Source: Psammoneis japonica
Taxonomy: Eukaryota
Reading direction: 5' to 3'
Assembly (NCBI GenBank): GCA_008632985.1
Contig: QPGO01000294.1
Coordinates: 1-64,000 of the forward strand
Length of the DNA stretch: 64,000 nt
Shown here: positions 1 to 60,855 of the stretch, piece after piece
Layout: each line of letters starts with the position of its first letter
Numbering within the stretch: position 1 is the first letter of the stretch
The notes under the pieces: model-generated
What the model saw: the letters and a program-made list of their open reading frames with translations, nothing else
Database searches by the model: none
What the model was told of the DNA's origin: nothing
Position numbers and translations under genes: made by a program

Positions 1-1303
1 CAGCACACAGCCAATGTCATTGCCGAGAACACGTTTGCTCAGGTTGACAGCAAAGGCAACCAGTGTTCTGTCTTGCATGAGATGCAGGACCACGAGAGGT
101 GCGACGATGCAGTGTCAATTGCTGACGGTGCCACACGAACCGCTGACGTGAAGGAGAAGAAGAAGATCACAATGAAAGGGTGGAAGTCATTGGTTGGATG
201 GAAGGATGGCAGCTCATCTGGGGTCAAACTCAAAGATCTGAAGGACTCCAGCCCCATTGAAGTTGCTGAGCATGCTGTTGCGAACAGGTTGACGGAGGAA
301 CCTGCTTTTGCTTGGTGGGTCACACATGTCCCACGCAAATGGAATCGCATCATGTCCAAGGTTAAGAAGAAGCACTGGCGCACGACTCACAAGTTTGGGA
401 TCTGATTGCCCAAGTCAGCGGAGGATGCTCTGTGGACAGACCAGGAAACGGGGACAGATCATTGGGCTCGTGCAATCAACAAGGAGATGGCAAAGGCAAA
501 GGTGGCATGGCGCGAGCACGAGGCTGAAACCCCTCAAGTCATCCGGGAAGGCAAGAGTGCAACTTTGCGTGGTTGTCAGGAGATCAGGTGCCACATGGCA
601 TTCGATGTTAAAATGGATTTCACCAGAAAGGCAAGGTTTGCAGCTGGCGGACACACGACAGAGGCTCCGGCATCGACCACTTGTTCTGGCATGGTTTCCA
701 GAGACAGTGTGCAACTTGGACCCTTGTTGGCAGCTTTGAATGGGATCGACATTGCAGCGATTGATCTGGAGAATGCTTGTCTCAATGCACCGTGCGCAGA
801 GAAGATGTGGTTTGAAGGTGGAAAGGAATGCGGCGAGTGTGAAGGAAAGGTGCTTGTCGTCACTTGGGCGTTGTGTGGCTCAAAGAGCTCGGGACACTCG
901 TGGAGGTCTGCACTGTCATCGGTCTTGCGTGACTTGGGCTTTGAATTGACGAGAGCGGATCCAGACGTCTGCTTGCGCGCGGCGACTCGTGAGGACGGGC
1001 ATGAGCATTGTGAAATGCTTTTGGTTTGTGTCGATGACACACTGATCATTTCCCATCAGGGGAAGTCCATTGTTGCTGCAACAGGTGAACACTGTGCCGT
1101 GAAGCCCGGCAGTGAAGGAGAACCGGAAGTTTGTCTTGGGGCTAATGTTGAGAGGGTTCAGACTCAGGATGGGCGCACGATTTGGGCAAGTTCACCGAGA
1201 TCATGTGTCAAATCAGCGATTGAGACTGTGGAAGGCCTGTTGGATGAAGACGGCAATGGAGAGGTTCTGAAGAACAGTGCAAAGGATCCGCCACCCGCAA
1301 AAT
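1..1303 (+). mobile_element. Degenerate Ty1/copia (CoDi-type) pol fragment (post-integrase region and RT); upstream member of a 1429-bp-offset tandem duplication
   Basis: Copia RT motifs FDVKMDFTRKARFAAGGH, DLENA[C]LNA, AL[C]GSKSSG and [C]VDD. Premature TGA at 403-405 (CGA at 1832-1834 in the next copy). Breaks off at ~1303 and restarts at an upstream pol position. Confidence 0.93.
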
Positions 1304-3498
1304 GAGTGACGTGGTGTTGTGACGAAACCTGCAAGAGGACAGGATGGGCGTCCAGTTGGGACTCGGCCTCAAAACCCATTGTTTGACACTCGCGAATGCG
1401 AAGTGGAATGTGCCAACGGAACCACAGATGAGCACACAGCCAACGTCATTGCCGAGAACATGTTTGCTCAGGTTGACAGCAAAGGCAACCAGTGTTCTGT
1501 CTTGCATGAGATGCAGGACCACAAGAGGAGCGACGATGCAGTGTCAATTGCTGACGGTGCCGCACGAACCGCTGACGTGAAGGAGAAGAAGAAGATCACA
1601 ACGAAAGGGTGGAAGTCATTGGTTGGATGGAAGGATGGCAGCTCATCTGGGGTCAAACTCAAAGATCTGAAGGACTCCAGCCCCATTGAAGTTGCTGAGC
1701 ATGCTGTTGCGAACAGGTTGACGGAGGAACCTGCTTTTGCTTGGTGGGTCACACATGTCCCACGCAAACGGAATCGCATCATGTCCAAGGTTAAGAAGAA
1801 GCACTGGCGCACGACTCACAAGTTTGGGATCCGATTGCCCAAGTCAGCGGAGGACGCTCTGTGGACAGACCAGGAAACGGGGACAGATCATTGGGCTCGT
1901 GCAATCAACAAGGAGATGGCAAAGGCAAAGGTGGCATGGCGCGAGCACGAGGCTGAAACCCCTCAAGTCATCCGGGAAGGCAAGAGTGCAACTTTGCGTG
2001 GTTGTCAGGAGATCAGGTGCCACATGGCATTTGATGTTAAAATGGATTTCACCAGAAAGGCAAGGTTTGCAGCTGGCGGACACACGACAGAGGCTCCGGC
2101 ATCGATCACTTGTTCTGGCGTGGTTTCCAGAGACAGTGTGCGACTTGGACCCTTGTTGGCAGCTTTGAATGGGATCGACATTGCAGCGATTGATCTGGAG
2201 AATGCTTGTCTCAATGCACCGTGTGCAGAGAAGATGTGGTTTGAAGGCGGAAAGGAATGCGGCAAGTGTGAAGGAAAGGTGCTTGTCGTCACTTGGGCGT
2301 TGTGTGGCTCAAAGAGCTCGGGACACTCGTGGAGGTCTGCACTGTCATCGGCCTCACGTGACTTGGGCTTCGAATTGACGAGAGCAGATCCAGACGTCTG
2401 CTTGCGTGCGGCGACTCGTGAGGACGGGCATGAGCATTGTGAAATGCTTTTGGTTTGTGTCGATGACACACTGATCATTTCCCATCAGGGGAAGTCCATT
2501 GTTGCTGCAACAGGTGAACACTGTGCCGTGAAGCCCGGCAGTGAAGGAGAACCGGAAGTTTGTCTTGGGGCTAACGTTGAGAGGGTTTAGACTCAGGATG
2601 GGCGCACGATTTGGGCAAGTTCACCAAGATCATGTGTCAAATCGGCGATTGAGACTGTGGAAGGCCTGTTGGATGAAGACGGCAATGGAGAGGTTCTGAA
2701 GAACAGTGCAAAGGATCCGCCACCCCCAAAATGCAAACCAGAGCTGGATGTGACGGACGAGTTGGGCCCCGACTTGGTGGACAGGTGTTTGCAGCTGACA
2801 GGGATTTGTCGTTGGGCGATCGAGTTGGGTCGCATCGACATCTTGCATGAGGTCTCAATCTTGTCTCAATGTCAAGCCAACCCAAGGAAAGGACACCTTG
2901 AGGCATTGTGTCATGTGTTTGCACACATGAAGAAGCACCAGAATGTTGGGCGCATCGGATTTGATCCAAAGGAACCGGTGATTGATGAATCTATTTTTAA
3001 TTTGAACACAGACTGGACCAAGTTTTACGGGGACGTCGAGGAGGAACTGCCACCACGGGCCGAAACCCCGTGGCAACCCGGCAAATGTCTGCGCATTTGT
3101 TGACGCTAACCATGCAGGGAATGTTGTCACTCGCAGGTCGCATGGTGGAATTCTGACATTCGTCAACAATGCACCAGTGGTGTGGTTCAGCAAACATCAG
3201 AGTGCGGCAGAATCAGCAATGTTTGGGAGTGAGTTGGTTGCAATGCGGATTTGCAAGGAATTGGTTGTTGCTTTGCGTCACAAGCTTCGCATGTGGTGTT
3301 GTGAAGAATGTAGAGGCACCCGAGTTGGTTTTGCACAAGAAGCACAATGCCATCAACTGCCATGTTGTGCGAGAGGTGGTCGCAGTGGGAATCATTCGTG
3401 TTGGCAAGGAGGATGTGGAAACAAACTTGGCAGATCAACCCATGAAGGTGGTTGCAGGAGAGCGGCGATGGAAGCTTTGCTCGTGTGTCTTTTGGTGA
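1304..3498 (+). mobile_element. Degenerate Ty1/copia (CoDi-type) pol 3' part: RT and RNase H
   Basis: ORF 1319-2590 has the RT motifs, with a TAG at 2588-2590 and a frameshift near 3060. RNase H motifs are FVDANHAG, FGSELVA, KKHNAIN[C]H and NLAD. Ends CVFW* at 3498. Confidence 0.93.
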
Positions 3499-3661
3499 TG
3501 TCCCGACACCAAGGCCAGGCACCTGTGGCTTGCACCCACATGTCTTGGCCTCCCAAGCCAGCATGTCTGGTGGTTTAATTTGGGTCTTGTGGTTTGCCTC
3601 TCTGTGAGAGGATGTTACATGTTTGGACGAATCGGCATCGTCATTGCCGTTTCGCAGGGAC

Positions 3662-3840
3662 TGAGTAAAAATCTGGATGGAGAGCTGTGCTGCAACTGGT
3701 GATTGGTTGACATGTGTGAGTCGAGTGGTGCTGCAGCGACCCGCTCACAATCTAATCAGGTTCAGGTTCGCATTGACAGTGTTGCTGCTTTCCATCAGAC
3801 GCAAGGTGTCGCACTTGTTCTTTCGTTGCATTGAGATTTG
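3662..3840 (+). repeat. 3' LTR of the copia element (~180 bp)
   Basis: Starts TGAGTAAAAATCTGGATGG just after a short purine-rich GCAGGGAC. Aligns with 34846-35012 and 54744-54919, which precede gag. Confidence 0.8.
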
Positions 3841-3989
3841 TTCGGTTGTTCAAATCTTCGTTGTGCAACGAACAGATTTCTTGCTTGCACCGTGCTCAGA
3901 TGAAAGGAAAGGAATTCGGAGTCTAAAATTTTAAAAATCAAAAACTCCCTCCGACGCGATCAAGAGGTCGCATGAGACGACGTGCGACC

Positions 3990-5303
3990 ATGATGGGAAT
4001 GAGAGAGTTTGACATCATTGTGTGCGGTGCAACAGGCTTCACGGGTGAGAAGGTTGCCAAGCACATCAAAGAATCCACTGAGCACAAACTAGCGATCTCT
4101 GGGCATTCTCGAGAAAAAGTTGGAGCAAGTCGCAACAGCGATTGGCCTCTCGCAAGACGCTGTCTTGGTGGCTCCAGTCGATGATCTGGATGCCCTGAAG
4201 GGTGCATTGGCAAAGGTTCGGGTTGTTCTTTCTTGTGCTGGACTGCATCGTCACGTTGGAATTGAAGTTGGCCATGCTGCAGTCGAAACCAAGATGGATT
4301 GCCTTGGTTTGCGTGGGGAACCGCAGTTCTTCTGTTGGTTCAGCACGATGGTGCTGCTCGTGCAGCTGATGCACTGATTGTGAGTGCACGCGCATTTGAT
4401 TGTGTTCCAGCAGAGCTCTCTGCTGCCTTTGCTGCAAGAGAGCTCAGTCGTTGCTTTTGTTCTGCGCCATTGACTGGAATCGAAATTGTTCATGCTTTTC
4501 ATGGTGTTGCGTGTGGAAACCCAACAACATTTCATGCAGCTGTCTGTGGCTTTCATGCTGCCATGAATGGCGAGCTCAAGCAAAGTCGTCAAGCTGTTGA
4601 AGAAAAATTCAAAGTGCAGAAACCACCTCCAAGACCAGAGGACTGGCCGAAGGCACCAGCAGCACCTGATGCCATCCCACAGCATCACGAAGCCACCAAC
4701 ACCTGCACTGTCAACTTCATGGGTGCAGATGCTGCAGCAATGTTGGCCTCCGACAGGTGCCTTCGTTTGCGGATTCCGTCCCAACATGCGGACACACCTC
4801 AACCTCGGCTAGCCATGAGCATTGGACAAAAGGAGAAATCACACGCACTGCAGCTGTTGGCATTTGGGTCTGCATTTTCGTTTCTAGCCAGATTTGGCTG
4901 GGGCTGCAAGGTTCTTCATGACCATCCAGAATCATTTTCGGGTGGTTTCTTCCGACAAGGGGGGCCAACAGAAGAGGAGCTTGCCAGCGCACACTTTTCA
5001 ACTTTCACTGCAGCACGCGGCAGGAGCGAAAAGGACTGTGTCACAGTCAAGCACCATGGACCAGAGCCGGGTTGCGCAGCAACTCCACAAATGATTGTCG
5101 CACTGGCAACAACTTTGCCAGAGCATCGTGACAAGCTTTCCTTCAAGGGCGGCATTGTGCCACCGGCAGCTTTGTTTGGTCAATGTGATGAAGTCTGCCG
5201 GCAGCTGAGGAAGCATGCTGTCAAGTTTGAGACTGCAGAGAGCTCGGCAGAACCTTCCGTCACAAGTGATGCCGCCAGGATTTGCTCGAATGCAGACATC
5301 TAG
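3990..5303 (+). pseudogene. Saccharopine dehydrogenase-like oxidoreductase (SCCPDH family) pseudogene
   Basis: Rossmann motif FDIIV[C]GATGFTG, plus VLSCAG, GEPQF, AFDCVPAEL and GPEPG[C]AATP, spread over three frames. Tyr positions are replaced by Cys/His. Confidence 0.85.
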
Positions 5304-8300
5304 CCTCAGTTCTACAGCCCTCATCTGCTCACCGCGTGCGATGAAACTTGCATCAGTTTCGCTCTCCGATGCCGATGTGCAACACTTTGTCACGAAAGCA
5401 AAGACACGTGCAATGCCAGCTGTTGACTGGACACAAGTTGATCATCAAGACGACAAGCTGAGAGAACCAGTCGTTTTTGCACCTGCACCAGTGGCCTGCC
5501 CCAAAACCGACGGAGCAGTTTGATGACTGAAAAAGGCAACGGTTTGGCTCTGCAGCAAATGAGTGTCACTGTTGAGGAGTCTTGGATGTTTGATTCGTGG
5601 GAACTTTTCACAAGCGTCGTCAGGAGGCGCAACGTGATTTGAAAGAATGCGAGAATCGACAATGTGCTTCTTCGAATCAGGCAGAGTCTGCGCAGAGCTG
5701 TTGCTGCTTGAGGTCATCAGATTCAAGCTGACCTGCATGAAAGGACAAAAGAAGGGTGTCTTTGAGGTTGCGGACCGTGGCGGATGGGTGGCGAGAGACG
5801 ACATTTAAGAAACATTCAGTTGCCTCCCTCAGCATGAGATTGATCTCACTCCATGCAGGGGGGCATGGCATTTGGACAATCCAAACATGCCGGTTTGTGC
5901 CGTCAAGAAATGTTCGCGTTGTGGTGCAAAAATGCTTGGGACAAAGAGATTTGGTCTGAAAATGAAGACAGTGGCAAGCGAAATTGACTTGCATGAATCT
6001 CACGAACAAGACTTGCCGCAGCGTCAGTCGTCGTCGCGGTGCTGTTTTCTTTGGTGGGGAATTTCAGCCACTGCCTCCCACAACACCTGCATCATTGCCT
6101 CCGTGTTCCCGTCTGCATCCGATGCACGTGTTGGGCTGCAAGGAAAACCCATTGAAAATGTCTTTGAGAGCAGTTGTTCCACAAGGCAACGGAACTCAAG
6201 CGACTCAATCACACCCATGCATCCAAAGTGGACAACACAACATTGCGGAATTCGATGAAGGCAAGGAAGATGTGAAGGAGTCGCTTCAAGATGCTGTTGC
6301 AAACACCAAGCAAGTCAAGAATGGAAGTGGTTTCAAAAGTTGGGAAAGCTTGAAGATGCACTTTGCATTGGCGCGAACTGACTTGTTGCTGCAGTGCTGT
6401 TCCACTGGACCTTTCCGCCTCCTTGGCAGCAGCACGCGATTTCTTTGTTGTTCGTGACACTCTCCACTGCAGGGCCACTGGAGCCAGCTCTAGCTGCTAG
6501 AGCAGAGGACAGAGCCACAACACTGCTTCTAACACCATCCACTCTAGAGAGATCGCCTTCAAGAGATTCGTGTTCTCAGCCCCAAAATGAAATGATCTCA
6601 TTGGGCAAACGACGTCCATGCGGCTCTCAAACTGACATCATCGCTGATGCATTTGCTTGAAGCACATGAACAAATGTGGAAGATTGACGGCCAAAGCTAA
6701 ACACATGACAGTGGAGAGGCATTGCATGTGGAGAGGCAACGACGGTCGCGCCTTCGTAGTGTTTTGGAACCTGGTGCATCGGATGGACTCTGTTGGGACT
6801 GACGCAGGTTCTTGTGGCAAACTTGAGCATTGCTGCGAATGCAAACCGATCACGCTACAGACGAGGAATGTGTGGGAGGCAAACTGCACTCATTGTCCTC
6901 TCTTGCTTTGGCATCAAAAGCTGTTCTCGACGTTGGAAATCTTGGTTTCTCTGTCACTTGAAGGGCACACAAGGTCAGAATGCGAGCGCTTGAAACTGAC
7001 AAAAGCAAATGCCATGTCTTGGAGAGCGCACTCGGGTCGACCATGTGAAATGTAAAACCACTGTTGCATGAATCTCGATGGCTCTTGAGGGGCTGTTTCA
7101 GCTGCCAGAGCAACTGTCAAGGCTTGGAGAGTCGCCTCGTCTGCAGGAGTGCCGCGAGAGAGATGTTTCTAATGGGGAACACGTCAAGCGCAACAACCGC
7201 CAACAGTCAGAGACACCTGCATCATAAAAACTTCGTCTCATGTTTGGATTTGATGAAAATTGGATGTCCGCATCATGTTCCGAGTGACTCGAATGAGAGA
7301 GGCTTGGAGGACTCGAGAAAAAACGCTTGTCGACCCGACTCGACACTTTGACATGTTGCAAACGACATGGGATGACCACAATGGCGAGCCTTGAGAATGC
7401 CACAGTCCTGTCATTGTCGCCAGCAATCGTAGATGGGACTGCAAGTGACATGTGGATTCCCCTTTTTGCATTTCTTCATTCATGTTCATCTGTCAAAAAA
7501 CAGAAATCAAAATCTGAAAAAGAGTGTGAGTTACAAAGTGTGACTCAGCGAGACGGTCACAATCGCAAACGCAACAAAACAGATCTTCAAACGCTGTGGG
7601 ACATGGAGAATGCAGCTGACATGACGGGCCGGCGACCCACAGGAGTGTCAAGCCTGTGGGGGTTCAGACATGAGATGCTCAATGAGCAACTCAAGCAGTC
7701 TGAACCACCTTACAACCTTCACAAAAAAGGCTGCCCTTCGGGGCATCAAGCACACCATCTTGGTCCACGACGTTGACAGGCGTTCAGCGTGAATTCAAAG
7801 AAAGAAAGCAGAGGCTGGCCCTCCTCTGACAGAGCCAGTGCATCGCAGTGCACTCGAAAGCACACTGGCTGGCTCTCACCACTGCCGCATTGGACATTTA
7901 CAAGCATTCAGCACACACGCAAGAAGCGAGTTTGCTGGCAATCGTGGTGTGTCTCCGTCGGAACCACGGACTGCTTTGACAGGCAATCGTCATTTCGCCT
8001 CGAACCGACTTCCAAAGATGTGCGCAATCAAATGCACAGAGGAAAACCATCAAGGACCCAAGCCTTCAGGTCCACATGGCAATCGTGTGCGGACGACATT
8101 CAATGACTCAACTCCAGCAGATCTAACTCGCAACGAGAACAAGACAATTGACTCGCCGTCGGCAGAGAACTGATGCAACCATGACAATCAAGAGAGCAAT
8201 GTGTTTCAAAAGGTCGAATGGCGTTTTTTGTGTGCTCCGTGCAACAATGAGGAAAGTGATTCAGATTTCACTTGTCCCGAGCCTTGACGCTTGACGTTTC

Positions 8301-8480
8301 GAATTTTTTTGAAATTGTGGCGGGAAAACCAACGGCTTCTTTTGCTGTCACATTTTGTGTGAAACTCATGCGAACACCGATGACGTCTGCCAAACGGAGA
8401 ATCTTTTGAGCTCCGAACTCCAAGATTTCCTTCCATCTGCCACATCCGCAGCACATGCCACATCAAGCATCACATTCATT

Positions 8481-8501
8481 TTGTTGTTGCAGTTGTTGTT
8501 G

Positions 8502-8553
<52 letters not shown>

Positions 8554-8566
8554 AGTTGCAGTTGCA
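8481..8566. repeat. (CTG/TTG)n trinucleotide microsatellite
   Basis: Directly visible; the paralog at 44704-44792 has a different CTG/TTG arrangement. Confidence 0.95.
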
Positions 8567-8699
8567 TTCGTCCTTGTCTGTTTTTCAATGACATTGAACC
8601 CAACACTCAACAGCATGACGACTGGAGCCCCCAAAGACAGCGGGCTGTCTCCAACAAAAGAAAAGGAGGAGGAAAATGATTCGCGAAGGCTTCCCCGCG

Positions 8700-9520
8700 T
8701 TGCTTCGTGCCGACGGCATGTGGTTTGGGTCCTCTGATTGAGGGTGCTGTCAGCAGCTGGTTGTCATTCGACCTCAGTTTGAGGGTGCCGCAGCTTTGAA
8801 CTGTGAGGATGATTGGGATTGGCGACACGGACAAGACCTGCAAGGCATTCTTGGAGCTTGCAGAATTGCCGCTCGGCATGCTGCGGGTTGGCCCCGACGC
8901 ATGGAGCCAGGCATTCACGCCGGACCAGGATGGCATTTCGAATGATCTCCTTTCCTTGTGCTGTCGACTCTGCCCGCAGTGTCACAAACGACAAAAATCT
9001 CATTCGCCTTGCCGCAGAAGCGTTGCTGCATTGTTTTGCCTTGTGCGCAGAGATTGGTGCTCCTGGGACACTTCCAGAAATTCTACGGGGGCATTTTCAA
9101 GTCAAGAGTGCACCGGACCGCTTTGCCCAGAAGGACCTTGTAACTGCAGGTTTCATCAAAATTGGACGCTTGAGCCATTCGCAGTGGTGGGCGGATGAAC
9201 GAGGACACCAGAGGCCAGTCGAGCTTCCCACTGTTCCACTGAAAAACATGGTTGAGGTGCTGACCAAGTGGGACACCCATGCAAGCAACCCCACAGTCAT
9301 TGATCAACGTGGTGAAAGCTTGCTCTTTGATGGATCTGATGAAACCCTTTGCGAGTGCCGTCACCGAAGCGTGTTGACCTGTTCCGAAACAATGTCTCGA
9401 CCACTGATGTTTCTGGCACCCTTCATTGGTGAAGAAACAGCGCTGAACCCACTCTGGTTGCTTGTGACCAAGGTGCAAAAAAGAACAAGCGAGGCCGAGG
9501 AACATTGGCAATGGCGCGGC
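8700..9520 (+). pseudogene. AhpC/TSA (peroxiredoxin-like, algal/cyanobacterial type) pseudogene
   Basis: Motifs IGIGD, CAEIGAPGTLPEILRG[H]F, G[H]QRPVEL..V.LKNMVEVLTKWDT[H], QRG..LLFD and MSRPL.FL; frameshifted. Boundaries approximate. Confidence 0.7.
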
Positions 9521-10129
9521 ATTGCACAAGCGTGGGTTAAAGTGAGTGCGTCGTTTTGCCAAATTTAGAATCTTGCGATCTCTGAACGCCAAGATTTCCT
9601 TCCCTCCGACACCACCACGCTTCACTGACAGAGCCTGCGACACTTCACATGCATGCCACATGATGCTGCCACATGCAACATCATGCTCAACAGTGACAAC
9701 AACAGGAACAAACAACGCAACAACAATGTCGTCGCTTCCAAGAGCAGAAGAAGCAATGCGGTGTGTTCGTACGACAAACAAACGCCACCACACAAATGAA
9801 GAGACAAGTCGAGTGCTGATGCTGCAGACTGTGTTCAGAAGTGGCAGCATTGACGATGAAGCCACCCTCGTTGACCTGAAGTCTTGACTGGACTCGACTC
9901 CGCTTGCTCTCGTGGTGGCTGTGACATCCTTTGGTGGACCCAGATGCAAATCTCTCCTCAACGATTTGCCTTTGCTCAAAAAGACTACGCCAGCGGTTCT
10001 GCTTGCTGTGGTTCTGCCCCGTCAAACCCCAAATTTTGATTTTACATGCCGATCGAATTGGGCTTGAATGAGATGCCGTGTCTGTCGCAAGCATTCGCGC
10101 CAATCTTCAAGAGATCAGCAGCAGTGATG

Positions 10130-10790
10130 GAGGGGGCTGCTGTCCCTTTTAGCACCAGCAACACCAAGAATCCTTCCGTGTGCTGTCCTGACAGTTCATT
10201 GGATCCCAATTCCTCTCCCACCAACCCCTTGGATGTGCTGCAATTGGTGCAACAATGGGCCACACGCTGAAACAAATCACCAAGGCGTCAACGGATTCCA
10301 ATTTGGGTCTGGGTTGCGGCTTGCGGCAATGCCACGAGCTTTGCCAGCCTGCTTGAGAATGAGGCAGTTCTCTGTTTGTGAAGTGGCGCTGGAGTCTGTT
10401 GCTTTTTGGCTGCCGACGTTGTGGGACCGTCCTGCACTTTCATTGAAGTGTCGACATGAAACCCCACATGTTTTACAAGTCACGAACTCACGCCAACAAG
10501 AAGAAGACGACCAATGTCGAATTCTGTTTGGGAGCGATGGAACACCTTCCCGCAGCCGACGGCCCGGTGGATTGTGCTGTGAGCAATTGCGTCATCGATC
10601 TCAATCCTGACAAGCCGCAGGTGTCTCGAGAAATGCACCACATTCTCAAACGGGGTGGTCGCATTGCCGTGTCAGACATCGTGATTCGCCCTGAAAAGAT
10701 CACACCCAACACCCCATTTTGCTTCAAGACGGCCAAAGCGATGACATGCATTCTCCCCGCAACTTGTGCGGACGAAGCCTTTCGATCCAT
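10130..10790 (+). pseudogene. Arsenite methyltransferase (ArsM/AS3MT-like) pseudogene
   Basis: SNLGLGCG near 10300, decayed SAM motif VLCL*SGAGVCCFLAA.VVGP, and NVEF.LG..EHLP.AD..VDC.VSNCVI.L.PDKPQV.RE...ILK.GGRIAVSDIV. Confidence 0.85.
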
Positions 10791-10859
10791 GTGGGCAGAG
10801 TTTGAATGGGAAATGAGGTGACCATTCCAACGTTGGTTCCCAACACTCGGCAGCTCGTG

Positions 10860-11560
10860 ATGACGATGATGCCAACACCACTTCTTGTTGAACCACTCGC
10901 ATGCGCGAGAGATCTGCGGCCACGTGCCTCGAAAGCCAGAGGTTACCTCAACGACACCATCATCGGTGAATTTTTCCTTTTGCTGTCCCTGTGGGCAAAG
11001 AAGCACCATTTGGAGCTTCCCAAGCAATGCCACTTTGTCAGCTCATGCTTTTTGCCAACACTTGTGCAGGATGGGCGCGTCAAGAATGGCAATGTTTGTT
11101 GTCAACTGAAGAAGTCACCGGGCAAGGGGGTGTTCGAATGCGACCGCCTGTTGGTGCCGATCAACAAGAGCAATGTCCACTGGGCTCTGTTGGTTGTCGA
11201 TTTCGAAGCTCACGTAATCGCAGGGTGTGATTCATGCGGAAATCCATGAAAGTCGTACGCCAAGAAGCTGTTGGAGTTCGTCGAGCAGGAACATCGTTTC
11301 CAATGCAACAACGAGAGCCTTCCGTCCGACTGGTCCATTGTCGAGAGTTGTCACATCCCCAAGCAGGCTAACGGATTTGATTGCGGTGTGTTCGTCAGCA
11401 TGTGTGCCTGCTGTTTGTCCTTGGGATGTGATGTCCTCGAAGGACACTTTGACCAGGACAAGATTCTGGGTCCATCCGGGGACTTCGGCCGTGCCAAGAT
11501 TTGTTCTGCCATCCTTCAGGGGCAGGTGGAGCAAAGGGTTTTTATGCAGTCCATGCAATG
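10860..11560 (+). pseudogene. Ulp1/SENP (C48) peptidase pseudogene
   Basis: YLNDTII, LLVPINKSNVHWALLVVD, [C]DS and IPKQANGFDCGVF give the His-Asp-Cys triad; frameshift near 11250. Confidence 0.88.
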
Positions 11561-44732: not shown

Positions 44733-44779
<47 letters not shown>

Positions 44780-49737: not shown

Positions 49738-49950
49738 TGCGATTCGTTTGTCGCAATGAAAAACATTGATGGCACGACAACAATGATTTTGCAACACTCA
49801 CACGAGTCTTGTCAGTGTTGCAAAACATTAGAATTTGAGCAAATCTGTGCTTTTGGTGGTGAAAAACCGTTCGCAAGTCAGAGACCGCGCAAAAATCGCG
49901 CAAATGTCGTTTTTGTGCACGATTTGGGTCACGTGCGGCTGGAACACGTC
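49738..49950 (+). mobile_element. MITE family B right-hand fragment after a single-N scaffold join
   Basis: Matches ~36505-36719 and ends CTGGAACACGTC; N at 49737. Confidence 0.8.
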
Positions 49951-52900
49951 TTGGTCATCTTCCAGGAAGACAGATGCCAGGATTTTGCCGGTGCCCTGAT
50001 TTCCATCGCAAGGAAGTGCAGCGGTGTCGGGGACTTCTTGATGACTGCATCATCAGAATGATCATGTTTACTGTGCAGTCGAGTCAGTCTCTGGCAACCG
50101 TTGCCAATTGGAGCATTTGATCTAAACTGCGACACAACAGAGGAAACAATCAATTTTGTTTTGATCACTCTTTGGAAGCATTGCGGATGTCGCTTTTCCC
50201 ATGTTTTAAGACAGCGGTCGTTTCAAGGAGCACCGCGTGGTGTCTTGTTTCAATCCCCAAAGGCGGCAGCTCACTGGGTCGGCGGTTGAGTGTGCAAGCA
50301 GGAAATGTGTCCCCGGCAGTGGGAAGAGCAGTGGAGTCTGTCAAAGAGAGACAGCACAGCTTTAGAATCGTCCAACAAAACACCTCTGGCGGGTGAATTC
50401 AGCCAAAAGGTCATGAAAAGCTCCACCGGCATGCACTGCACGACAGCTCATGGTGTTAAAAAGGAAGCAACCAAGACGACCTTGACCTCTTGGAGAAGCC
50501 TGTTGGCTGCTCTGCTGCTGGTGCTGCAGGCCAGATGACTTTACAACACGAAACATGACAAAAGTCGTCACCTTGTGCGCGTTGCCATTTCCAGCCAATG
50601 AAATCCAAAGTGGCATCATTTGGAATGAAGAGTGGAGTCGAGTTGTTGTTGGCTTGATTCCAATTTGCACGCCCAACGGATGCACCGTAACTGATGCTTC
50701 AATTCTGCTAGAGTCAGTGTCATGCTGCTGCTGCTGGGAACCACCGCGATCCTAGAACAACACACATTCCAACACCGAGTGAGGTGATTGCACCCAATGG
50801 TTGTTGCGTGTTTTTGTTGCGCACTGCTGCAGCACACAACATGAAATTGGCAATGACAGCAGAATCTTTAATGGAGAACAACCAGATTTTTCTTTTGGCA
50901 ATTGCACGTCAAACTTTTTTGGCTGCTGCACTGTAGATCCCTGCTGCCGGCAGTCGGATGGAGACAGGCAGTTTGGCGACCAAACGGCATTTCATGCCAG
51001 TGGTGCACTGCACAACATCTGTTTGCCCTCATCCATTTTAAGCTGCAATTTCATCACCAACTAGATCAAGAACGTCACCGCACCACTGCCATTCCTTCAG
51101 TGAATTTGGACGTAAGACACAAGACGTGAGCATGTGCTGTTGCTGCAATTTGCTCTGGCTGTGCAGAGGGCATCGTGATCGTTCAAAAGGATGGCAGCGT
51201 GCCACACCATCAAAGTTACATTCACCATTGTTGAAACATTCAACAAACGATTTCACCTTGGCAAAGCTCCTCTGATGAGGTCTTGGGTGCCCAGGAAAAG
51301 ATGTGCTGCGAAAAGTGCTGACTCCAAAAAGCGACGTTGTGGATTTCATCGATTGGCACTGTGGTGAATGTGCGCAAAGCAATGTTGAAAAAGAGCATGC
51401 AGTGGCAATGGCCGTTCAGCAGGGCTGTGATGTCGCACTCATTCACTCACTCCAACATGGGACATGGTGAGCCATTGCAATGGAATCCTTGACACAGAAC
51501 ATGACCCTCTTTGTGAGAATGGTGAGGCGGAATTCTCGGCATCAGATCTTCCAAAACGATCCGTCAAGGCAAAGAAATGTGCACAACCTGTGATCTGTAC
51601 ATTGACTGTGGAGATGTGGTGACTGTTGGGGTGTGGCTGAATCCCCAGCTCTGGATCTTTCCCAATCACGGTGTTTGCTTCGAAGTGGAAGGGTGCTGTG
51701 ACGAAAGCAAAGAATTCGAACTTGACATTTGGTTGGAAGTGGAGCCTGAGCACCCAGGAAAGGATGCACTTGGATTGCCAGAAAAAAGTCTTTTTCTTCA
51801 GCAGCATCTCAAGGAATTTGAAGAAAAGAGGGATTCAGACCTCAAGGCTGGAGGATCTGTGCCAAAAATGAATGGGATGTTTTACAGTGCAGTTCTTCAA
51901 TGCAAAATCAGACACAACAGAAGCTGTGCTTGAGTGGTTGGAGGAATGCGACAACAAGCTGTAAGGTGTTTTAAAGCTCCGCCTCACTGCAACTTGTCTC
52001 TTGAGGAGATTCACAAGCGGAAGAAATTTCTGGATCCCTGTGGCATGGAAATGCTCAGACGAGATTGTTGAACGACTTGTGGGTGAACAGGTCGATGAGG
52101 TCAGAGGACTGTCTTTGCTGACAGCAGCATTGGAGCTGGCTTGGTGGCTTGTCATGCCCTGGATGAGGCAGGACTCATTTGCAAATGTCTTGACATCAAC
52201 AATGCAGTCAAGACAAAGAACAAGAAGATTGTGTGGTGTCAACTGGGGGATGCCACAAACGAAGAAAAACAAAGGCCTCATTTGTCAGTGCTTCACTTTG
52301 AGCATGCAGCTGGACCAAACCTTCAGACAGAATGCCATGAAATGATTCTGCTTTTGCCCCTTTACTTTGGAGAGGGAGGCACAACCAGCGATGCTGTCTT
52401 GGACGCCAGCACACAATGGCAGGCCATTGGGAGAGTGTTTGGACCCGGACAGAGCAGCCCGGTTGTCAATCTCTTCAGGATTGAAGTTCGTGGTCCCAAC
52501 GATGAAGAGTGCCTTGATGGTCAGCCAATTTGCCAAAACACTGACAAGGAGACAATCGTGATGGCAATCAATGCTGGGGATGAATGAAGATCATGTGGTG
52601 TTTGCTGCAATTGTTCTCAGTCAGTGTTGATCTGTTTGGCACTTGCTTGTTCCTCCTTCTGATGCTTCAGATGAAGTCCTTCCTCAAATCATTGTTGTCC
52701 AAGTTGACTCTGCCCAGCCTTGTTGCCTGGAACCACACACAAAGAGAACATCATTTGAGAAACATCCAGACTTGTTTGGTCTGCTGCAACTTAGAAATGA
52801 CTGGCTGCCTCAACACTGCATCTGTTGTGTGCAAAGTGTCAATCTTGACAACAAACTGGGTTTCACAGAAATGGTGCTGGGAGAAGAATGTGCCCAAAGC

Positions 52901-55900
52901 CAGCAACTCCAGCTGCTGTGGTGTGCATTCAGAGTCAAAAGAGCAGACAGCTGGGGGGGGGGATTGTCAAAAATCTAACTGCAGCAGGGTCTCCACATCT
53001 TTCAGCTTGATCTGTGGACAGCCAATGGCCTCCCCCTGCAGAAGTCCCCTTCACACACTTTTGCAGGATTGGATGCTGGTGTGCTGATGGCTCAGATTTG
53101 CTCAAGCACAGGCTTTTCCCCAGAGAGCCACCTGCTGCCAGCATTGTCACATTTTGAAGAGTTTTTGCCACACCATTGATTGAGTGCCAAAAGAGTGAAG
53201 AGGAAACAAAAATCTCCAATGCCAAGGATCAGGCAACACATTTTCAGGCACCCCCCTGGCAGATGACTTGATGCACCCAGACATGACTTGCCCATGAGAT
53301 TGTTCATTTTGCTGCAAAGAGGCCCCACATGCACCATTGCTCAGCAAGCCATGCCCTCTGCTTGCAAAAGAAAAATGTCCCTGCACACACCAGTGCAAAA
53401 GCAAATGTGGTGGATTTGAAACACAGGTGTGAACAGCACACAATCAGGCAAAGGCAATTCATTGAAGAAGCCAACCGTTTTTTTGTTCTGCAGCTTGTCA
53501 AGACTCACAATCAAGGCCTCTGTTCTTGGCACAATTGCCGCACCAAACACAGAGACAGGACAGCCCCAATTGTCAGCATGCAGAGCTGCACTCACCTGCA
53601 TTGGAGCCACATGTTCTCCCACACAACAATGAAAAAAATTGAGAAAGACAGTCACCATGTGCTTCTTTGAGAATGTGCTGACATGGCTTTGTGAACAAGC
53701 CACTGCAGGTTGTGCTCAGAAAAACACCCCTCTGCCTGACAGATGGTGGCTTGCATTTGTCACAGATCAAGCCAAAAATGGAAGTCCACAACTTGGACAT
53801 CATGCACCACTTTGCCAGCTCTGCATCCTTGCATTTTTAGAGCAAACAGTGTTGCAGCATGGCCAGGGTTGGTGGGGTTTCAAGTTTGGGTCAGGGGACA
53901 GAGAGTGGAAATTTTCTGGCAAAACTTGAAGCATGTGTGTGACCAAGCAAGATTCCATCTAAAAAGTTAGTCTGTGACATGACCAAGTTAATCTGCTGTG
54001 AGGAGCCAGCACCCAAAATGCTTGCCACAGGTGGCATGGTGCCAACAAGAACAACAGCGCCATCAACACAGGCTCCCATGCTAAGAAATGTGTTGTTTCT
54101 TTTGCTCAGAGCACTGCTCCAATGTTTTCCATCACTCCCATTGATTGCACAACAACTCCTTTGAAACACAAGAGCTTCCTTCCTCCAAAATGATGCAGCC
54201 ACCTGAGTTGATGCACTCATGTCCAGTGCCATGGTTGCTGCAAGCGCCTGCCCCTCCAATGACTCCCTGGTGTCATGTCCCATTGACTGAATGACCATGT
54301 GGCTCTTCTGAAACACAACAGCTTCTGCCTCTGAAACAACATTGCAGCTGCCAGAACTGAAGCACTCATGCCTCCCACAGATGCCAGCACAAGCCCACCC
54401 CTCCAATGTCTTGCAGCCATGGTGTTGAAAACATTCCAAGAAAGACACAAAACATGCATTGCAAGGAGCAAGAACCTCATGCTGAGCTCCAGCCATCAAG
54501 CTGTCTTCATCCATCTTGACATTCAAAGTCCAGCCAGTGCTGCATGCTGTGAGCTGAGTGAACCACTGTTGCTGGTGCTGGAAGCACCAGAGACAAACGA
54601 GCTGAAACACAGTCACATGTGCTGGCACCATTTCACCTGAAAAAAGGACAGAGATTGTGCATGAGCATGCCCCACTGGCAATCAACAGACTGCACCCAAG
54701 ACTCAACTGGCAGCTGGAACGTCATGATTCAGCAGCGTGGTTGTGAGCAAATCTGGATGGAGAGCCATGTCACAATTGGTGATTGGTTGACACATGTGAG
54801 TCGAGTGGTGCTGCAGCAACCCGCTCACAATCCAATCAGGTTTGGGCTGCATTGACAGTGTTGCCACTTTCCATTGGACGCAAGGTGTCGCACTTGTTCT
54901 TTCGTTGCATCAAGATTTATTGCTTTGTCAGAGCCAAGACGAAAAAGACAGAACAAAATGGTTTCAAACACAACTCGTCATGGACGATTGTTTGTTGTGT
55001 TGTTTGCATGGAATGTGCAGCTGTAGAAACGGTGCTGAACTGTGCGCGATGCGTCAGAATTCGGATTGATGCGCATGAAGATGCGTCTCGTGTCGCTTGT
55101 CATGATGTCCACAAAACAGCTTGCAATGGCAACACTTGCAATGACAGTCACTGTCCTCACATGTGTGATGGGTGTGAGGGGACTGCGGCATTGGGCGACA
55201 TGCCCGAGCCTGTGCTCAATGATGTCGGTTGACATGAACGACACAGGACTGATCACCCTGACGTCGGGTGGCTGTGTGAACCCATCATCACAACACAGAG
55301 AAAGTGCAGCTGCCGTGACCATGCAGACTCACAGCTGTGTGTCCCCAATGCGGAGGATGGCAGCAGTGGCAGCACCAGCAGCAGCACTTGTGGCATTGGC
55401 CGCGGCAGCTGACATTGACGCAGTTTTGCAAGTTTGTGGTGTTGCTGACCAGAACGCAAGGGCAAGGTTGGTTTTCTACGAAGGGTTCATGACTTTGGAA
55501 AACATCGCAGTGATGGAGAGTGACCATGATGTGGAAGATGTGGTGCAGAGGGCATCTTGTCACACGGTGGCCGACGGACGCGTGACTCTGGGACTGTTCA
55601 GATCAAGAACTTGCAGGCGCTAGCATGGTGGTGCCAGGATTTGCTTGAATGGAACCAGCCATTGGTTGCGGCAGACTTTAATGCAGCAGCCATGGCTGCG
55701 GCCCGGGATGGCAGGCGCATCAAAAAGGAGCGCACGGACTTGGACGCGTCGGCAAGCGGCCTCGTGAAGTTTGAGCCTGATGATTTTGATGTGTGCGAAG
55801 ACGCTTTCTTGAATCTCCTGGCACAGAAGTTTGGCGTGTTGAAAGATCCCCTTTGCCATGTGGCAAGGATGATGCCAGCTCCGGCTGCATTCGCGGACAC

Positions 55901-56134
55901 CCAACAACAGCGCATGCACCAGACACCTTTGAATGGTGCCGCATGTGACGAGGACAACCGCAGCGTTTGTCATGTGTTGAAGGAACACTTGGTCGACATG
56001 GCAGGATGGGCATGGATCAAACCGTTTGACGCAACAGAAGATGGGCGTGGAGCATTCAACGCATGGGTTGACCATTGCAACGGACAGGGCGAGTTGAGCA
56101 AGCGCATTCATCTGGCTGTGGCAACTGTTGAAAT

Positions 56135-56320
56135 GACGTGTTCCAGTCCCAGGTGACACACAAAATGACAATCGATTTTGAATGTAAATTGTGCATCTCT
56201 CAGTGCATGAAGCACTTTCACACAAAATGCTCAGGAGGATTGGCTTTTACAGGCATCTGGAGCATGAACAATTGTGAAGAATTAAACAGTTTTTTGTGGG
56301 GTGTTGAATTCCTCATGGGA
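56135..56320 (+). mobile_element. MITE family B left part in gag (same site as 36154), running into the assembly gap
   Basis: GACGTGTTCCAGTCCCAGGTGAC start at the same gag position. Confidence 0.88.
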
Positions 56321-56520
56321 NNNNNNNNNNNNNNNNNNNNNNNNNNNNNNNNNNNNNNNNNNNNNNNNNNNNNNNNNNNNNNNNNNNNNNNNNNNNNNNN
56401 NNNNNNNNNNNNNNNNNNNNNNNNNNNNNNNNNNNNNNNNNNNNNNNNNNNNNNNNNNNNNNNNNNNNNNNNNNNNNNNNNNNNNNNNNNNNNNNNNNNN
56501 NNNNNNNNNNNNNNNNNNNN
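56321..56520. other. Assembly gap (200 N)
   Basis: Run of N. Confidence 1.
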
Positions 56521-59500
56521 AAGCGCAAGATTTCCAAATGAGCCATTGTGGTGGCGGTGGCCACGGCTTTTGTTGAGGTCGTGGTTGCGGAGGAAGATTT
56601 GGATGTGGGGGCGGACGTGGACGTGGTGGTGGACGCCAAGGTGGAGGGGGCGACCACACTGCTGTGCTCAATGGAGCAGATGTGTCCGACCCCACAAGGA
56701 GCTTTAGCGCTCAAGAATGGGAAAAGTTGCAGTGCAATGGAGGCATGAGCTGCATGTTCCAGGCTCGCGAACGAATGGGTCATGGACGCGGTGGTGGCCG
56801 TGGGTCTCCCGCAGGTCGCGATGGGGGCGGCAGGCATGCAGCTGAAGCCCGAGTCCATCAAGATGGCCAAGACCAAACCCAACAACAGGATCAGGAGCAA
56901 AAGAGCAGCGGGCGTGGTCGCGGCGCTGACCGTGATCGCGGTGGATGCAATGGACGCACCTTTGGTCGGGGAGCCCATGATGGTTCCACCTGACTCCTTG
57001 GGGTGGCAACAGCTGCTGGAGCATTGGCGCATTTGGCACACTTGTCGTTTTTGCTTGTGCCACTCTTCTTGCTCTTGACTCGACCCCACCCAATGTCTCG
57101 TTTCAAAGGAAAGGCGACAAAGAGACACATTGCTGTAACGTCAAAACGTGTGATCCGATCGATGAGTTCTGCACAGATGACAAATTTGATGACACCTGGG
57201 TTCATTGCTCGAAATGAATGTGACACTCACGTGGACACTTGTTGCACTGGAGCGAACTGGAAACTCATGGAGTTGACGAATGAAGTGTGCAAAGTGCACC
57301 CATTTCTGGACTCTTGTGAGCCGATCAAACAGATTCCTGTGGCACGTTGTTGCACCGCACGGACAGATCCGGAAACGACTCGTGAACATTTGCTGGTTGG
57401 TGATCAAATGCTCTGGTTTGGAACCGACACGGAACATTCACTTTTGAATCCCAACCAACTCCGTGCGCACAACATGCCCGCACACGACAACCCTTGCAAC
57501 ACTCGAAACGGATTTGGCATTGAAGCTGACGAAGCTTTCATCCCTTTCAATGCCACGGGGACAATTGTGTCTTTCAAGTCTCGTGTTCCAACGGATTGGG
57601 AAGTGCAGAACTCACCGGTCATGCTGTTGACAGGTGACACATGGGATCCAGCACAGACAGACATGGGCTCACCGGAGCGCACTGGAGCGCAGGCGGAGAT
57701 GCGTGCCATTCGATCATTGAACTCTGGCATGTGACAAGAAACGCTGGGGCAAGGTCAAAATGCAACTGTCATCAATGTCCCCCATCTGTCAACTTCAATT
57801 GTTTTGGGACAGACTTGTCAGCTCAGTTGATGTGGCTTGCACATGTCGCGACGACGTGGACAAGAGGCAGATGGCAGTCAAAGATTTGCACAGCAAGGAT
57901 CGACACTCAAAAGTTGACGCTGAAGAGTTGGCTCGGAAATGGAGTGTCGGCTTAGAAACGGCAAAAGACACTCTCAACGTAACTGCTCAGCGCGGTGTGC
58001 GAACGGCGACCCAGCCGATGTCACGAAGAGTGAGGGTGGATCATCTTGACTTGCATCGGAAGCGTCTGAAAGGAACATGATTTGTGGATGCTTTGACATC
58101 CAAGGTGAAGTCCTCACTCGGCAACACGTGTGCCAATGTTTGCACTCAGGGCAAATTCGTGAAGGTTGTGCCGATGACCGCCAGGTCGGAGGCAGGTTTG
58201 TCTCTTGTTGAATTTACAGACGACGTGGGTGCACCAGAACATCTTGTGTCAGATGGGGCAGGAGAGTTCACCGGAAGGAGCACCGAGTTTGTGAGACACG
58301 CACGACGCATGAGGATGCAATTGAGAACATCAGAACAGGGCCGAAAGAATCAGAATCAGGCAGCGGAGCACGAAATTGGTTTCTTGGCCAAGCGCTGGCG
58401 GCTGCAGATGACAAAGAAGAAGGTGCCAAAGCGATCATGGGACTTCTGTCTTGTTTGCAAGTCGGAACTGGTGTCGCGCATGGCAAGAGGCAGAGACAAG
58501 AGGACTGGACATGAAGAGGTCACTGGACAGACACCGGAAATGGGCGAGTGTTTGGACTTTGGTTTCTGTGACATGGTGTGGTGGTGGGACAGGCCCAACA
58601 AGCCAAATGCAACAGACGATCCTCGAAGGCTTGGACGGTGGCTTGGCATCTCTCACAAAGTTGGCTCGGACATGCGCCATTGGATCATTGCGGAAAGCGG
58701 GAAGATTGTCTCCAAAACATCCGTTGAGCACGTGACACAGGCTGACATGGTGCAACCGGACATTTGTGTCAAGGTCGACAACTTTAATGAGCAGCTGGAG
58801 AAGCGATTGGATGATGCCAACTTTGTCTCAAAGGGTGATGAAGCAGCACCCCCATTTGTGTTGGACGATCTTGCAATTGACGGCAACTCTGGTGTGGAAT
58901 GTGAGGGCAGTGTCACGCCAGAGGACAAGGAACATGGCGACATGCCATTGCCCGACGAGCAACCAGACGACAATGATGAGCAGGCAATCGATCAACACCT
59001 GGGAATGGAACTTGTGTTTGACATCGGAACCGACGGCAAGCAACGTGGTGTTGCAACGAAACCTGCAAGAGGACAGGATGGGCGTCCAGTTGGGACTCGG
59101 CATCAAAACCCATTGTTTGACACTCGCGAGTGCGAAGTGGAATGTGCCGACGGAACCACAGATGAGCACACAGCCAATGTCATTGCCGAGAACATGTTTG
59201 CTCAGGTTGACAGCAAAGGCAACCAGTGTTCTGTCTTGCACGAGATGCAGGACCACAAGAGGAGTGACGATGCAGTGTCAATTGCTGACGGTGCCGTGCG
59301 AACCGCTGACGGGAAGGAGAAGAAGAAGATCACAACAAAAGGGTGGAAGTCATTGGTCGGATGGAAGGATGGCAGCTCATCTTGGGTCAAACTCAAAGAT
59401 CTGAAGGACTCCAACCCCATTGAAGTTGCTGAGCATGCTGTTGCGAACAGGTTGACGGAGGAACCTGCTTTTGCTTGGTGGGTCACACATGTCCTGCGCA

Positions 59501-59919
59501 AACGGAATCGCATTGTGTCCAAGGTTAAGAAGAAGCACTGGTGCATGACTCACAAGTTTGGGGTCTGATTGCCCAAGTCAACGGAGGATGCTCTGCGGAT
59601 AGACCAGGAAATGGGGACAGATCATTGGGCTCGTGCAATCAACAAGGAGATGGCAAAGGTGAAGGTGGCATGGCGCGAGCACGAGGCTGAAACCCCTCAA
59701 GTCGTCCGGGAAGGCAAGAGTGCAACTTTGCGTGGTTGCAAGGAGATCAGGTGCCACATGGCATTCGATGTTAAAATGGATTTCACCAGAAAGGCAAGGT
59801 TTGCAGCTGGCGGACACACGACAGAGGCTCCGGCATCGATCACTTGTTCTGGCATGGTTTCCAGAGACAGTGTGCGACTTGGATTCTTGTTGGCAGCTTT
59901 GAATGGGATCGACATTGCA

Positions 59920-60143
59920 GCGATTGTTCTGGAGAGTGCTTGTCTCAATGCACCGTGCGCAGAGAAGATGTGGTTTGAAGGCGGAAAGGAATGCAGCGAG
60001 TGTGAAGGAAAGGTGCTTGTTGTCACTTGGGCGATTGATCTGGAGAATGCTTGTCTCAATGCACCGTGCGCAGAGAAGATGTGGTTTGAAGGCGGAAAGG
60101 AATGCAGCGAGTGTGAAGGAAAGGTGCTTGTCATCACTTGGGC
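59920..60143 (+). repeat. 111-bp in-frame tandem duplication inside RT
   Basis: 37-aa block AI.LE.ACLNAPCAEKMW...VTW occurs twice; GCG microhomology at the junction. Confidence 0.92.
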
Positions 60144-60855
60144 GTTGTGTGGCTTAAAGAGCTCGGGACACTCGTGGAGGTCTGCACTGTCATCGGTCTT
60201 GCGTGACTTGGGCTTCGAATTGACGAGAGTGGATCCGGATGTCCACTTGCGTGCGGCGACTCGTGAGGACGGGCATGAGCATTGTGAAATGCTTTTGGTT
60301 CATGTCGATGACACACTGATCATTTCCCATCAGGGGAAGTCCATTGTTGCTGCAACAGGTGAACACTGTGCCGTGAAGCCCGGCAGTGAAGGAGAACCAG
60401 AAGTTTGTCTTGGGGCCAACGTTGAGAGGGTTCAGACTCAGGATGGGCGCACGATTTGGGCAAGTTCACCGAGATCACATGTTAAATCGGCGATTGAGAC
60501 TGTGGAAGGCCTGTTGGATGAAGACGGCAATGGAGAGGTTCTGAAGAACAGTGCAAAGGATCCACCACCCCCAAAATGCAAACCAGAGCTGGACGTGACG
60601 GACGAGTTGGGCCCCGACTTGGTGGACAGGTGTTTGCAGCTGACAGGGATTTGTCGTTGGGCGATCAAGTTGGGTCGCATCGACATCTTGCATGAGGTCT
60701 CAATCTCATCTCAATGTCAAGCCAACCCGAGGAAAGGACACCTTGAGGCATTGTGTCATGTGTTTGCGCACATGAAGAAGCACCAGAATGTTGGGCGCAT
60801 CGGATTTGATCCAAAGGAACCGGTGATTGATGAATCCATTTTTAATTCAAATGCA

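Follow-up and report, generated by a model that had tools for sequence, protein, structure and literature searches.

Reciprocal TG and CA codons in copia copies and the loss of TpA across a tandem transposon array of Psammoneis japonica

How can the same conserved tyrosine codon read as cysteine in some copies of a copia element and as histidine in others? This question is raised by a 64,000-nucleotide stretch of contig QPGO01000294.1 from Psammoneis japonica (assembly GCA_008632985.1), referred to below as the window, which contains four such copies. The first codon of the catalytic YVDD motif of the reverse transcriptase is TGT at 1027–1029 (plus strand, copy A1) and 2456–2458 and CAT at 41026–41028 and 60301–60303, and in each case it is followed by GTC GAT GAC. 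A DPDV column splits in the same way (TGC at 970 and 2399; CAC at 40969–40971, plus strand, copy B, and at 60244), as does an SPRS column (TGT at 1204 and 2633; CAT at 41203–41205, plus strand, copy B, and at 60478). The original prediction had pointed out this split, and every codon that it quoted was found at its position. It had explained the split by a TAT ancestor hit independently on opposite strands after the copies separated, i.e., by mutagenesis of double-stranded DNA in place, with the caveat that a change of TA to CG followed by CpG deamination would yield the same pairs. The answer at which we arrive, and which we hold with considerable confidence, is that a DNA-level process turned TpA into TpG or CpA in place in silenced repeat DNA, probably by deamination of adenine.

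The copia copies were placed by tblastn with their best intact relative (P0003), and their domains were assigned by Pfam. All four lie on the plus strand and carry RVT_2: A1, a partial copy (1–1299, pol residues 713–1146 of P0003); A2 (1301–3495, residues 670–1418); B (37579–41880, residues 5–1340; RVT_2 E 2.8e-10); and C (57084–60855, residues 5–1240). RVT_2 scored 32.5–40.6 bits in four open reading frames (ORFs), against a cut-off of 31.6. In none of the four copies is the catalytic YxDD intact; it reads CVDD or HVDD, and the copies are therefore dead. A1 and A2 overlap in pol residues 670–1146 with 97.9% identity, which marks a local tandem duplication (1–2733).

As an outgroup, 30 intact pol relatives were aligned with the window copies. 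The YVDD column is Tyr in 27 of the 30 relatives (Phe in two, Cys in one) and the SPRS column is Tyr in all 30, so the Tyr ancestor that had been assumed holds at these two columns. At the DPDV column, 28 of the 30 relatives carry Trp and only two carry Tyr, and a Tyr ancestor there is only inferred. Cys, His or Arg in place of Tyr, which would have spoken against a Tyr ancestor, is not what the relatives carry at YVDD and SPRS, and the Trp at DPDV speaks neither way.

The split was not limited to these columns. When a conserved-Tyr column was defined as one with Tyr in at least 70% of the 30 relatives, 26 of 27 such columns showed TGY or CAY throughout the window copies covering them, and one was still TAC; the split of the Tyr codons is far beyond chance. 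Copy B has 16 TGY and 9 CAY at its Tyr columns. ORF P0001 (39676–41901), compared with the same relatives, keeps Tyr at one of 20 conserved-Tyr columns and has Cys at 11, His at six, Trp at one and Pro at one, and its Tyr content is 0.1%, as compared with ~3% in the relatives. Its 27 conserved-Ile columns keep Ile in seven cases and otherwise show mainly Thr (7), Val (5) and Met (2), as expected from mutated ATA and T|AT. A search of longer proteins gave 1091 relatives; the best 120 were pol proteins, mostly of 1300–1450 residues and with up to 65% identity. Fragilaria crotonensis was the only named organism among these 120, and Cyclotella cryptica was added by a later look-up; both are diatoms.

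We then asked how far the loss of TA extends. The original prediction had treated the signal as a feature of the copia reverse transcriptase copies, which proved too narrow, because it is window-wide and embraces several element classes. The observed/expected ratios for the whole window were 0.13 for TA, 1.57 for TG, 1.55 for CA, 0.68 for CG, 0.91 for AT and 1.07 for TC. The A→G or T→C changes were confined to TpA, ApT was not depleted, and the nearly identical ratios of TG and CA indicate that the two strands were hit equally. In 30 of 32 bins of 2 kb, the TA ratio was 0.04–0.16 and the TG and CA ratios were 1.4–2.0; the two exceptions (0.58 and 0.64) lie in 14001–18000. From the 2 kb bins and the individual TA positions, on which its edges were placed, we defined an island with a normal TA content at 13720–18170 (187 TA in 4,451 bp; ratio ~0.6), flanked by a depleted block on the left (1–13719; 0.04–0.12 per bin) and another on the right (18171–64000; 0.04–0.16 per bin). 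The two blocks together contain 314 TA in 59,549 bp, and outside the island the ratio is 0.09 for TA and near 1.56 for TG and for CA. Relative to the island, the depleted DNA has less TA (0.53% instead of 4.20%) and less CG (4.25% instead of 5.06%) but more TG + CA (19.78% instead of 14.70%); TAT is reduced 57-fold and ATA 40-fold.

The depleted sequences comprise copia, a long interspersed nuclear element (LINE)-like element and a DNA-transposon-like element, here called element X, all depleted to the same degree. The loss of TA is uniform, whereas the CG ratio varies with the element from 0.12 to 0.86 (0.12–0.28 in 18001–20000, 32001–34000 and 52001–54000, and 0.5–0.86 in most of the array). 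Because TAA and TAG have been lost and TGA is almost the sole stop codon left, the window contains 92 stop-free frames of at least 150 residues on both strands, many of them overlapping in opposite directions; such blocks can mislead gene prediction through spurious long ORFs on both strands. The transposon family as such is not depleted in this way, since none of 80 metagenomic loci encoding copia relatives had a TA ratio below 0.3 (median 0.705, minimum 0.38). Two of these loci (L053 and L064) had a CG ratio of 0.03–0.06 and a TA ratio of 0.38–0.47; they are cases of extreme CpG decay, unlike the kind of decay in the window.

The arrangement of the elements tells at which stage the mutations occurred. 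In the window, composite units of ~19 kb follow one another in tandem, each built of element X, pieces of 2 kb and 5 kb, and copia. There are three units. Insertions at 13034–20820, 20969–21364 and 22921–31329 lengthen the first to 36 kb, and the third begins at 60856–64000; the stretch 41880–60847 is colinear with 5665–13033, 20821–22920, 31330–36339, 37007–37880 and 38681–41861. Unrelated elements thus recur in a common order, and the units therefore arose by duplication of DNA. This agrees with the proposal that double-stranded DNA was mutated in place, the copies being parts of a tandem array that was duplicated as DNA.

Element X lies on the plus strand in all three units. The copy in unit 1 (5665–13033, 7.4 kb) is 94.5% identical to its duplicate in unit 2 (41880–49254), and the partial copy in unit 3 (60856–64000) runs past the end of the window. 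Pfam matches in element X comprise an arsenite-methyltransferase-like fragment (10447–10818), whose named relatives are arsenite methyltransferases, a coatomer-beta fragment and a Ulp1 protease (10806–11246); judging from this content, element X does not appear to be a retroelement. The arsenite-methyltransferase-like, coatomer-beta appendage and Ulp1 (Peptidase_C48) sequences stand side by side at 10447–11246 and again at 46672–47660, and it seems that a DNA transposon captured these gene fragments.

Next, the order of mutation and duplication was considered. Nineteen mutated Tyr columns are common to copia lineages A and B, and 16 of them are concordant and three discordant. If independent hits give about half discordant columns, the binomial probability of three or fewer out of 19 is ~0.002; most Tyr hits are older than the split of the A and B copia lineages. 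The core of the original prediction, a TA ancestor hit on either strand, in DNA and in place, after the copies had separated, was borne out, with the qualification that most of the Tyr codons had been hit earlier. The common ancestor of the copia copies, with 16 of 19 shared Tyr codons lost, was already dead.

These results bear on the possibility that RNA or cDNA was edited at each round of retrotransposition by an ADAR/ADAT-like enzyme or another deaminase, the copies being independent insertions. The copia copies are indeed retroelements, and A-to-I editors are known to favor a preceding U, as a recent preprint on Bigelowiella natans notes (bioRxiv 10.64898/2026.01.13.699255). However, both strands were hit equally, element X with its captured gene fragments and Ulp1 protease is equally depleted, the copies stand in the same order across three tandem composite units, and a copia ancestor that had lost those Tyr codons could not have copied itself. 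Because element X and the LINE-like insertion are as depleted as copia and the array is colinear, mutation did not take place at an RNA stage, and we regard editing during retrotransposition as highly improbable.

Mutation in place also went on after the units were duplicated. We summed the counts from 21 partly overlapping alignments between duplicates in the window. Adjacent double differences were of the TG/CA type in 308 cases, the next class being AC/GT with 22, and there was no CG/TA difference. Units 1 and 2 of element X differ at 384 of 7,360 aligned bases, of which 194 fall into TA classes, 128 are CG versus TG/CA and 62 are other mismatches. Counted by column, this pair has 86 reciprocal TG/CA, 22 TA versus TG/CA and 24 TA/TA columns, as well as 290 CG/CG and 128 CG versus TG/CA columns. 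About 218 TA sites were still present in element X at the duplication, most of which were lost later; unlike element X, copia had already lost most of its TA when the unit was duplicated.

Rates were estimated on the assumption that concordant independent hits equal discordant hits, with a CpG-derived minority of columns and gene conversion ignored. The per-copy survival of TA since duplication was 0.12–0.28 in 15 of 18 pairs and 0.53–0.58 in the three youngest. In 17 of the 18 pairs, TA hits per site since duplication were 185–492 times the residual per-site divergence, as judged from fixed differences; the one other pair has just one residual mismatch. The per-site rate at TA was 1.5–9.4 times that at CpG, mostly 4–9 times. 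Hits therefore continued after the tandem duplication, mainly at TA sites, with ordinary CpG decay running alongside at a 4–9-fold lower rate per site.

Can CpG decay itself explain the reciprocal codons? If methylated CpG were the main source, TG and CA would derive from CG, either ancestral or formed as an intermediate from TA. CpG decay has certainly left traces: the CG ratio is 0.68 overall and 0.12–0.28 in some elements, and conserved Arg residues of P0001 have become Trp, Gln or His. We carried out the outgroup scoring of reciprocal columns that the original prediction had proposed, and the 43 such columns of the copia coding region were assigned to TA in 16 cases and to CG in nine, with 18 ambiguous; in five of the nine assigned to CG, a third copy still has CG. 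In the three-copy alignment of element X, the third state at reciprocal columns was TG or CA in 57 cases, CG in seven and TA in two. However, Tyr codons cannot be CG, and 26 of the 27 conserved-Tyr columns are TGY or CAY. From CpG decay alone, ~7 reciprocal columns would be expected in the element X pair, where 86 were seen, and ~1–3 of the 57 in the three-copy alignment; nor can CpG decay remove TA. The caveat of the original prediction was thus partly right, as an ancestral CG lies behind nine of the 25 resolved reciprocal columns, but the intermediate from TA to CG finds no counterpart in the 21 alignments, in which CG/TA differences are absent. As a main cause, CpG decay is very improbable and is refuted by the outgroup; it stands as a minor, parallel process.

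How the individual TA sites were hit was followed along the duplicates. Outcomes along a copy are random (runs tests on eight duplicate pairs, z from −1.06 to +0.9). Processive bursts on a single strand were considered and dropped, since these pairs show no strand-coordinated runs. The survival of TA depends on the flanking bases. Comparing unit 1 with unit 2, with each site taken once (9 alignments, 17.5 kb), per-copy survival was 0 for ATAT and ATAC, 0.05 for ATAG, 0.07 for both ATAA and GTAC, 0.12 for CTAC, 0.40 for GTAA, 0.41 for TTAA, 0.57 for CTAA and 0.67 for CTAG. Sites containing ATA or TAT were discordant in 60 cases and unhit in two, as compared with 67 and 54 for other sites (Fisher p = 6e-10), and the order of the flanks was the same with copy-level counts and with the island as the baseline. 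The choice of strand was nearly independent of the flanks, TTAT against ATAA giving 44:44, although C was favored over A at +1 (37:19, p = 0.02). This flank rule seems to belong to the duplex site rather than to a single strand. A simpler rule based on the +1 base, at which survival hinted (T > C > G > A), was rejected: strand choice disagrees with it, and a multiplicative model fails for CTAG and GTAA.

The process is near saturation, affects several element classes and both strands equally, works site by site and spares a 4.45 kb island. In the mechanism that we favor, the A:T pair of TpA is converted to G:C, a hit on the A of the plus strand giving TG and a hit on the A of the minus strand giving CA. 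Chemically, an enzyme would deaminate adenine at TpA and leave hypoxanthine; it might be a deaminase, ADAT2/TadA-like or of another type, that is aimed at repeats or foreign DNA. Its role could be a genome defense of the kind proposed for B. natans; repetition, chromatin state and foreignness are candidate triggers.

Another possible interpretation centers on thymine: the T of TpA would be modified, as 5-hydroxymethyluracil or a base-J type, or damaged, and would mispair with G and thus change to C. Targeting and the in-place nature would be as in adenine deamination, and only the chemical step would differ. TpA is palindromic, so that the sequence fits both chemistries, and a strand choice that is nearly context-free (44:44) together with context-dependent site survival fits recognition of a duplex step equally well. 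In dinoflagellates, 5-hydroxymethyluracil is enriched at TpA, and TC is also favored there. In the window, however, TC is not depleted (1.07). The literature consulted describes no such modification for this lineage, and the sole paper found with the signature proposes adenine deamination, albeit without an enzyme test (bioRxiv 10.64898/2026.01.13.699255). We consider a thymine-centered step unlikely.

Could the depletion be an artefact of sequencing or assembly, for example if a long-read consensus systematically miscalled a modified TA motif? Such miscalls are known for methylated motifs in long-read consensus sequence, and no library type is recorded for the runs. The sequence was compared with the Logan contigs of a sequencing run (run X1), which are built from exact 31-letter words. 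Contigs of depth 31–36 showed no difference over 13586–14315, 14414–15322 and 15302–19000, and thus they extend into depleted DNA to the left and right of the island, across both of its boundaries. In the repeats, the depth of this run was 85–466, and TG↔CA variants at neighboring positions distinguish other genomic copies, as at 9694/9695, 10074/10075 and 10373/10374. Moreover, the outcome at a column is inherited among the copies (16 of 19 concordant), the island is normal in the same molecule, and three public proteins from other collections share the loss of Tyr. Run X1 excludes a consensus artefact, and we give the artefact hypothesis almost no credence.

The island lies within an insertion found only in unit 1 (13034–20820), whose flanks (13034–13719 and 18171–20820) are depleted and whose center is unmutated. 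The 4.45 kb of the island have single-copy depth in run X1. A Mutator-like match on the minus strand at about 14183–14561 (PF20700, E 1.8e-5) was below the curated cut-off. ORF P0002 (757 residues, 15331–17604) belongs to no Pfam family and has one relative, with 30% identity; an atlas lead from the island ORF to heterokaryon-incompatibility-like proteins came with a high score that was nonetheless below the useful level. A search for terminal inverted repeats or other structures gave only short imperfect inverted repeats, and nothing is visible at the edges of the island. The simplest reading is that the island arrived late, after the process had stopped here, or that its sequence is not a target.

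The array next to the island also offers a test of duplication as the trigger, which pointed both ways. On the one hand, element X lost most of its TA after duplication and the single-copy island was untouched, which could mean that duplication sets off the process; element X, mostly unmutated when it was duplicated and saturated afterward, would, if this holds true, point to a repeat-induced system. On the other hand, 18171–19000 is depleted although it lies in a contig at single-copy depth, and the viral target in B. natans is single-copy as well.

Several points weigh against in-place conversion by adenine deamination as we have described it. The island holds 34 of the most favored sites (17 ATAT and 17 ATAC), all untouched, which means that the process has ceased or does not operate constitutively here. 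Since TA is its own reverse complement, A→G and T→C are indistinguishable from sequence. The rates and events are in every case read from fixed differences between copies, gene conversion between tandem units could distort the counts of concordance, and the nine CpG-derived columns among the 25 resolved in copia represent a class that the rate estimates ignore. Run X1 is not an independent individual, as it probably came from the same sample as the assembly.

Other features of the array are as follows. The LINE-like insertion found only in unit 1, recognized as a gap in colinearity (22921–31329, 8.4 kb), is TA-depleted (0.09–0.12); its Exo_endo_phos match at 24882–26819 is weak (Pfam E 0.0015) and below the cut-off. 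A dispersed repeat of ~396 bp occurs three times, at 20969–21364, where it is an insertion specific to unit 1, at 29614–30009 and, in reverse, at 37877–38275, with identities of 88% and 67–71%. Within element X of unit 3, 60925–61799 resembles 61799–62674 at 92% identity, a local tandem duplication. Unit 2 contains assembly gaps, namely a single N at 49737 and 200 N at 56321–56520.

Does the signature occur elsewhere? Among the best 150 representatives of the P0001 search, three copia-like public proteins have 0–0.4% Tyr and carry Cys or His at conserved-Tyr columns (P0231, 11 of 15; P0257, 13 of 15; P0224, 7 of 8). In P0023, a relative of 1405 residues, 8 of the 27 Tyr columns hold Cys or His. 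In a fourth decayed copy, P0285, Tyr is retained and the only changes are from Arg to Gln, Trp, Cys or His, which is plain CpG decay. A metagenome scan for the DNA of the Tyr-less protein P0224 gave no confirmed locus. The protein alignments suggest that the same signature may be present in the other data sets (P0231, P0257, P0224 and P0023). As a further outgroup that is not a retroelement, the arsenite-methyltransferase-like fragment of element X had too few conserved Tyr columns; its changes (I→V, N→D and V→A) fit the process but are not decisive.

The hypermutation defenses known so far, fungal repeat-induced point mutation (RIP) and APOBEC, act by C→T. An A:T→G:C counterpart to them would have in the window its second case, one that is saturated and set in another repeat landscape. 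This second case gives a measured sequence rule against which candidate enzymes can be held and a second genome for phylogenetic profiling of deaminases, and the mutated array adjoining an untouched island is a natural experiment on the trigger. A natural enzyme that turns A:T into G:C in double-stranded DNA would, if real, be of interest to base editing. A broader interpretation, against which we would still lean, is that a TpA-directed defense mutator extends beyond one chlorarachniophyte and also erases transposon arrays in a diatom-lineage genome. It would recognize duplex TA by a palindromic flank rule (ATAT and ATAC far ahead of TTAA and CTAG) and choose the strand at random. It would be a new class of double-strand DNA adenine deaminase, or a thymine-modifying equivalent, shared across stramenopile, alveolate and rhizarian (SAR) algae, and it would be repeat-induced, as a mirror of RIP.

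In the literature searched, hypermutation of A:T to G:C at TpA is described in a single preprint of 2026, on B. natans, and the diatom transposon literature that was searched contains no passage on hypermutation, TpA, deamination, RIP or a dinucleotide signature. In this preprint, mutation accumulation yielded 231 mutations in two integrated viral regions, 230 of which were A→G or T→C, these all on TpA, at a rate of ~6e-7 per site per generation as compared with 3.5e-10 elsewhere (bioRxiv 10.64898/2026.01.13.699255). It also reports 124 clusters of TpA-depleted windows and an enrichment of reverse transcriptase and DDE domains among the depleted genes, and the authors (Mettrop et al.) propose an ADAT2-like DNA adenine deaminase, without an enzyme test (bioRxiv 10.64898/2026.01.13.699255).

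The two cases share changes from TpA to TpG and CpA only, with a local depletion of TpA coupled to an excess of CpA + TpG, and reverse transcriptase and DDE domains occur among the depleted sequences in both. Both rates lie two to three orders of magnitude above the background, being based on fixed differences in the window and on de novo events in B. natans. In B. natans, the established targets are a pair of single-copy viral insertions that have not come close to saturation (Rho TpA 0.45, 3.3% TpA), whereas the window is an array of transposon remnants with 0.53% TpA. A tetranucleotide rule has been measured in the window, whereas the main text on B. natans mentions neither sequence context nor trinucleotides, diatoms or stramenopiles, although its supplement may contain context data that overlap with this rule. 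Judging by the transposon family, the lineages also differ, as the only named relatives of the window copia are from diatoms.

Among better-known processes, methyl-CpG decay resembles that of the window in acting on a palindromic dinucleotide, symmetrically and with TG and CA as products, and it is present in the same DNA. Its source, however, is CG and not TA, and CpG was lost 4–9 times more slowly per site and to an extent that depends on the element. The editors ADAR and ADAT2-ADAT3 (TadA family) likewise change A to G with a T or U immediately 5′ of the target, but they act on RNA, whereas the substrate in the window must be chromosomal DNA, on both strands.

RIP of ascomycetes is similar in that it is an in-place hypermutation of repeats at the DNA level that wrecks transposon reading frames, hits both duplicates and stops at unique DNA. 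It changes C to T, mostly at CpA, and creates TpA, whereas the process in the window destroys TpA and raises the GC content; a gain of TpA of the RIP type was not seen, TpA being at 0.09 and ApT at 0.91 of expectation. RIP also leaves strand-coordinated runs from single events, whereas the outcomes along a copy in the window are random. The process in the window is thus a mirror image of fungal RIP and not a member of it.

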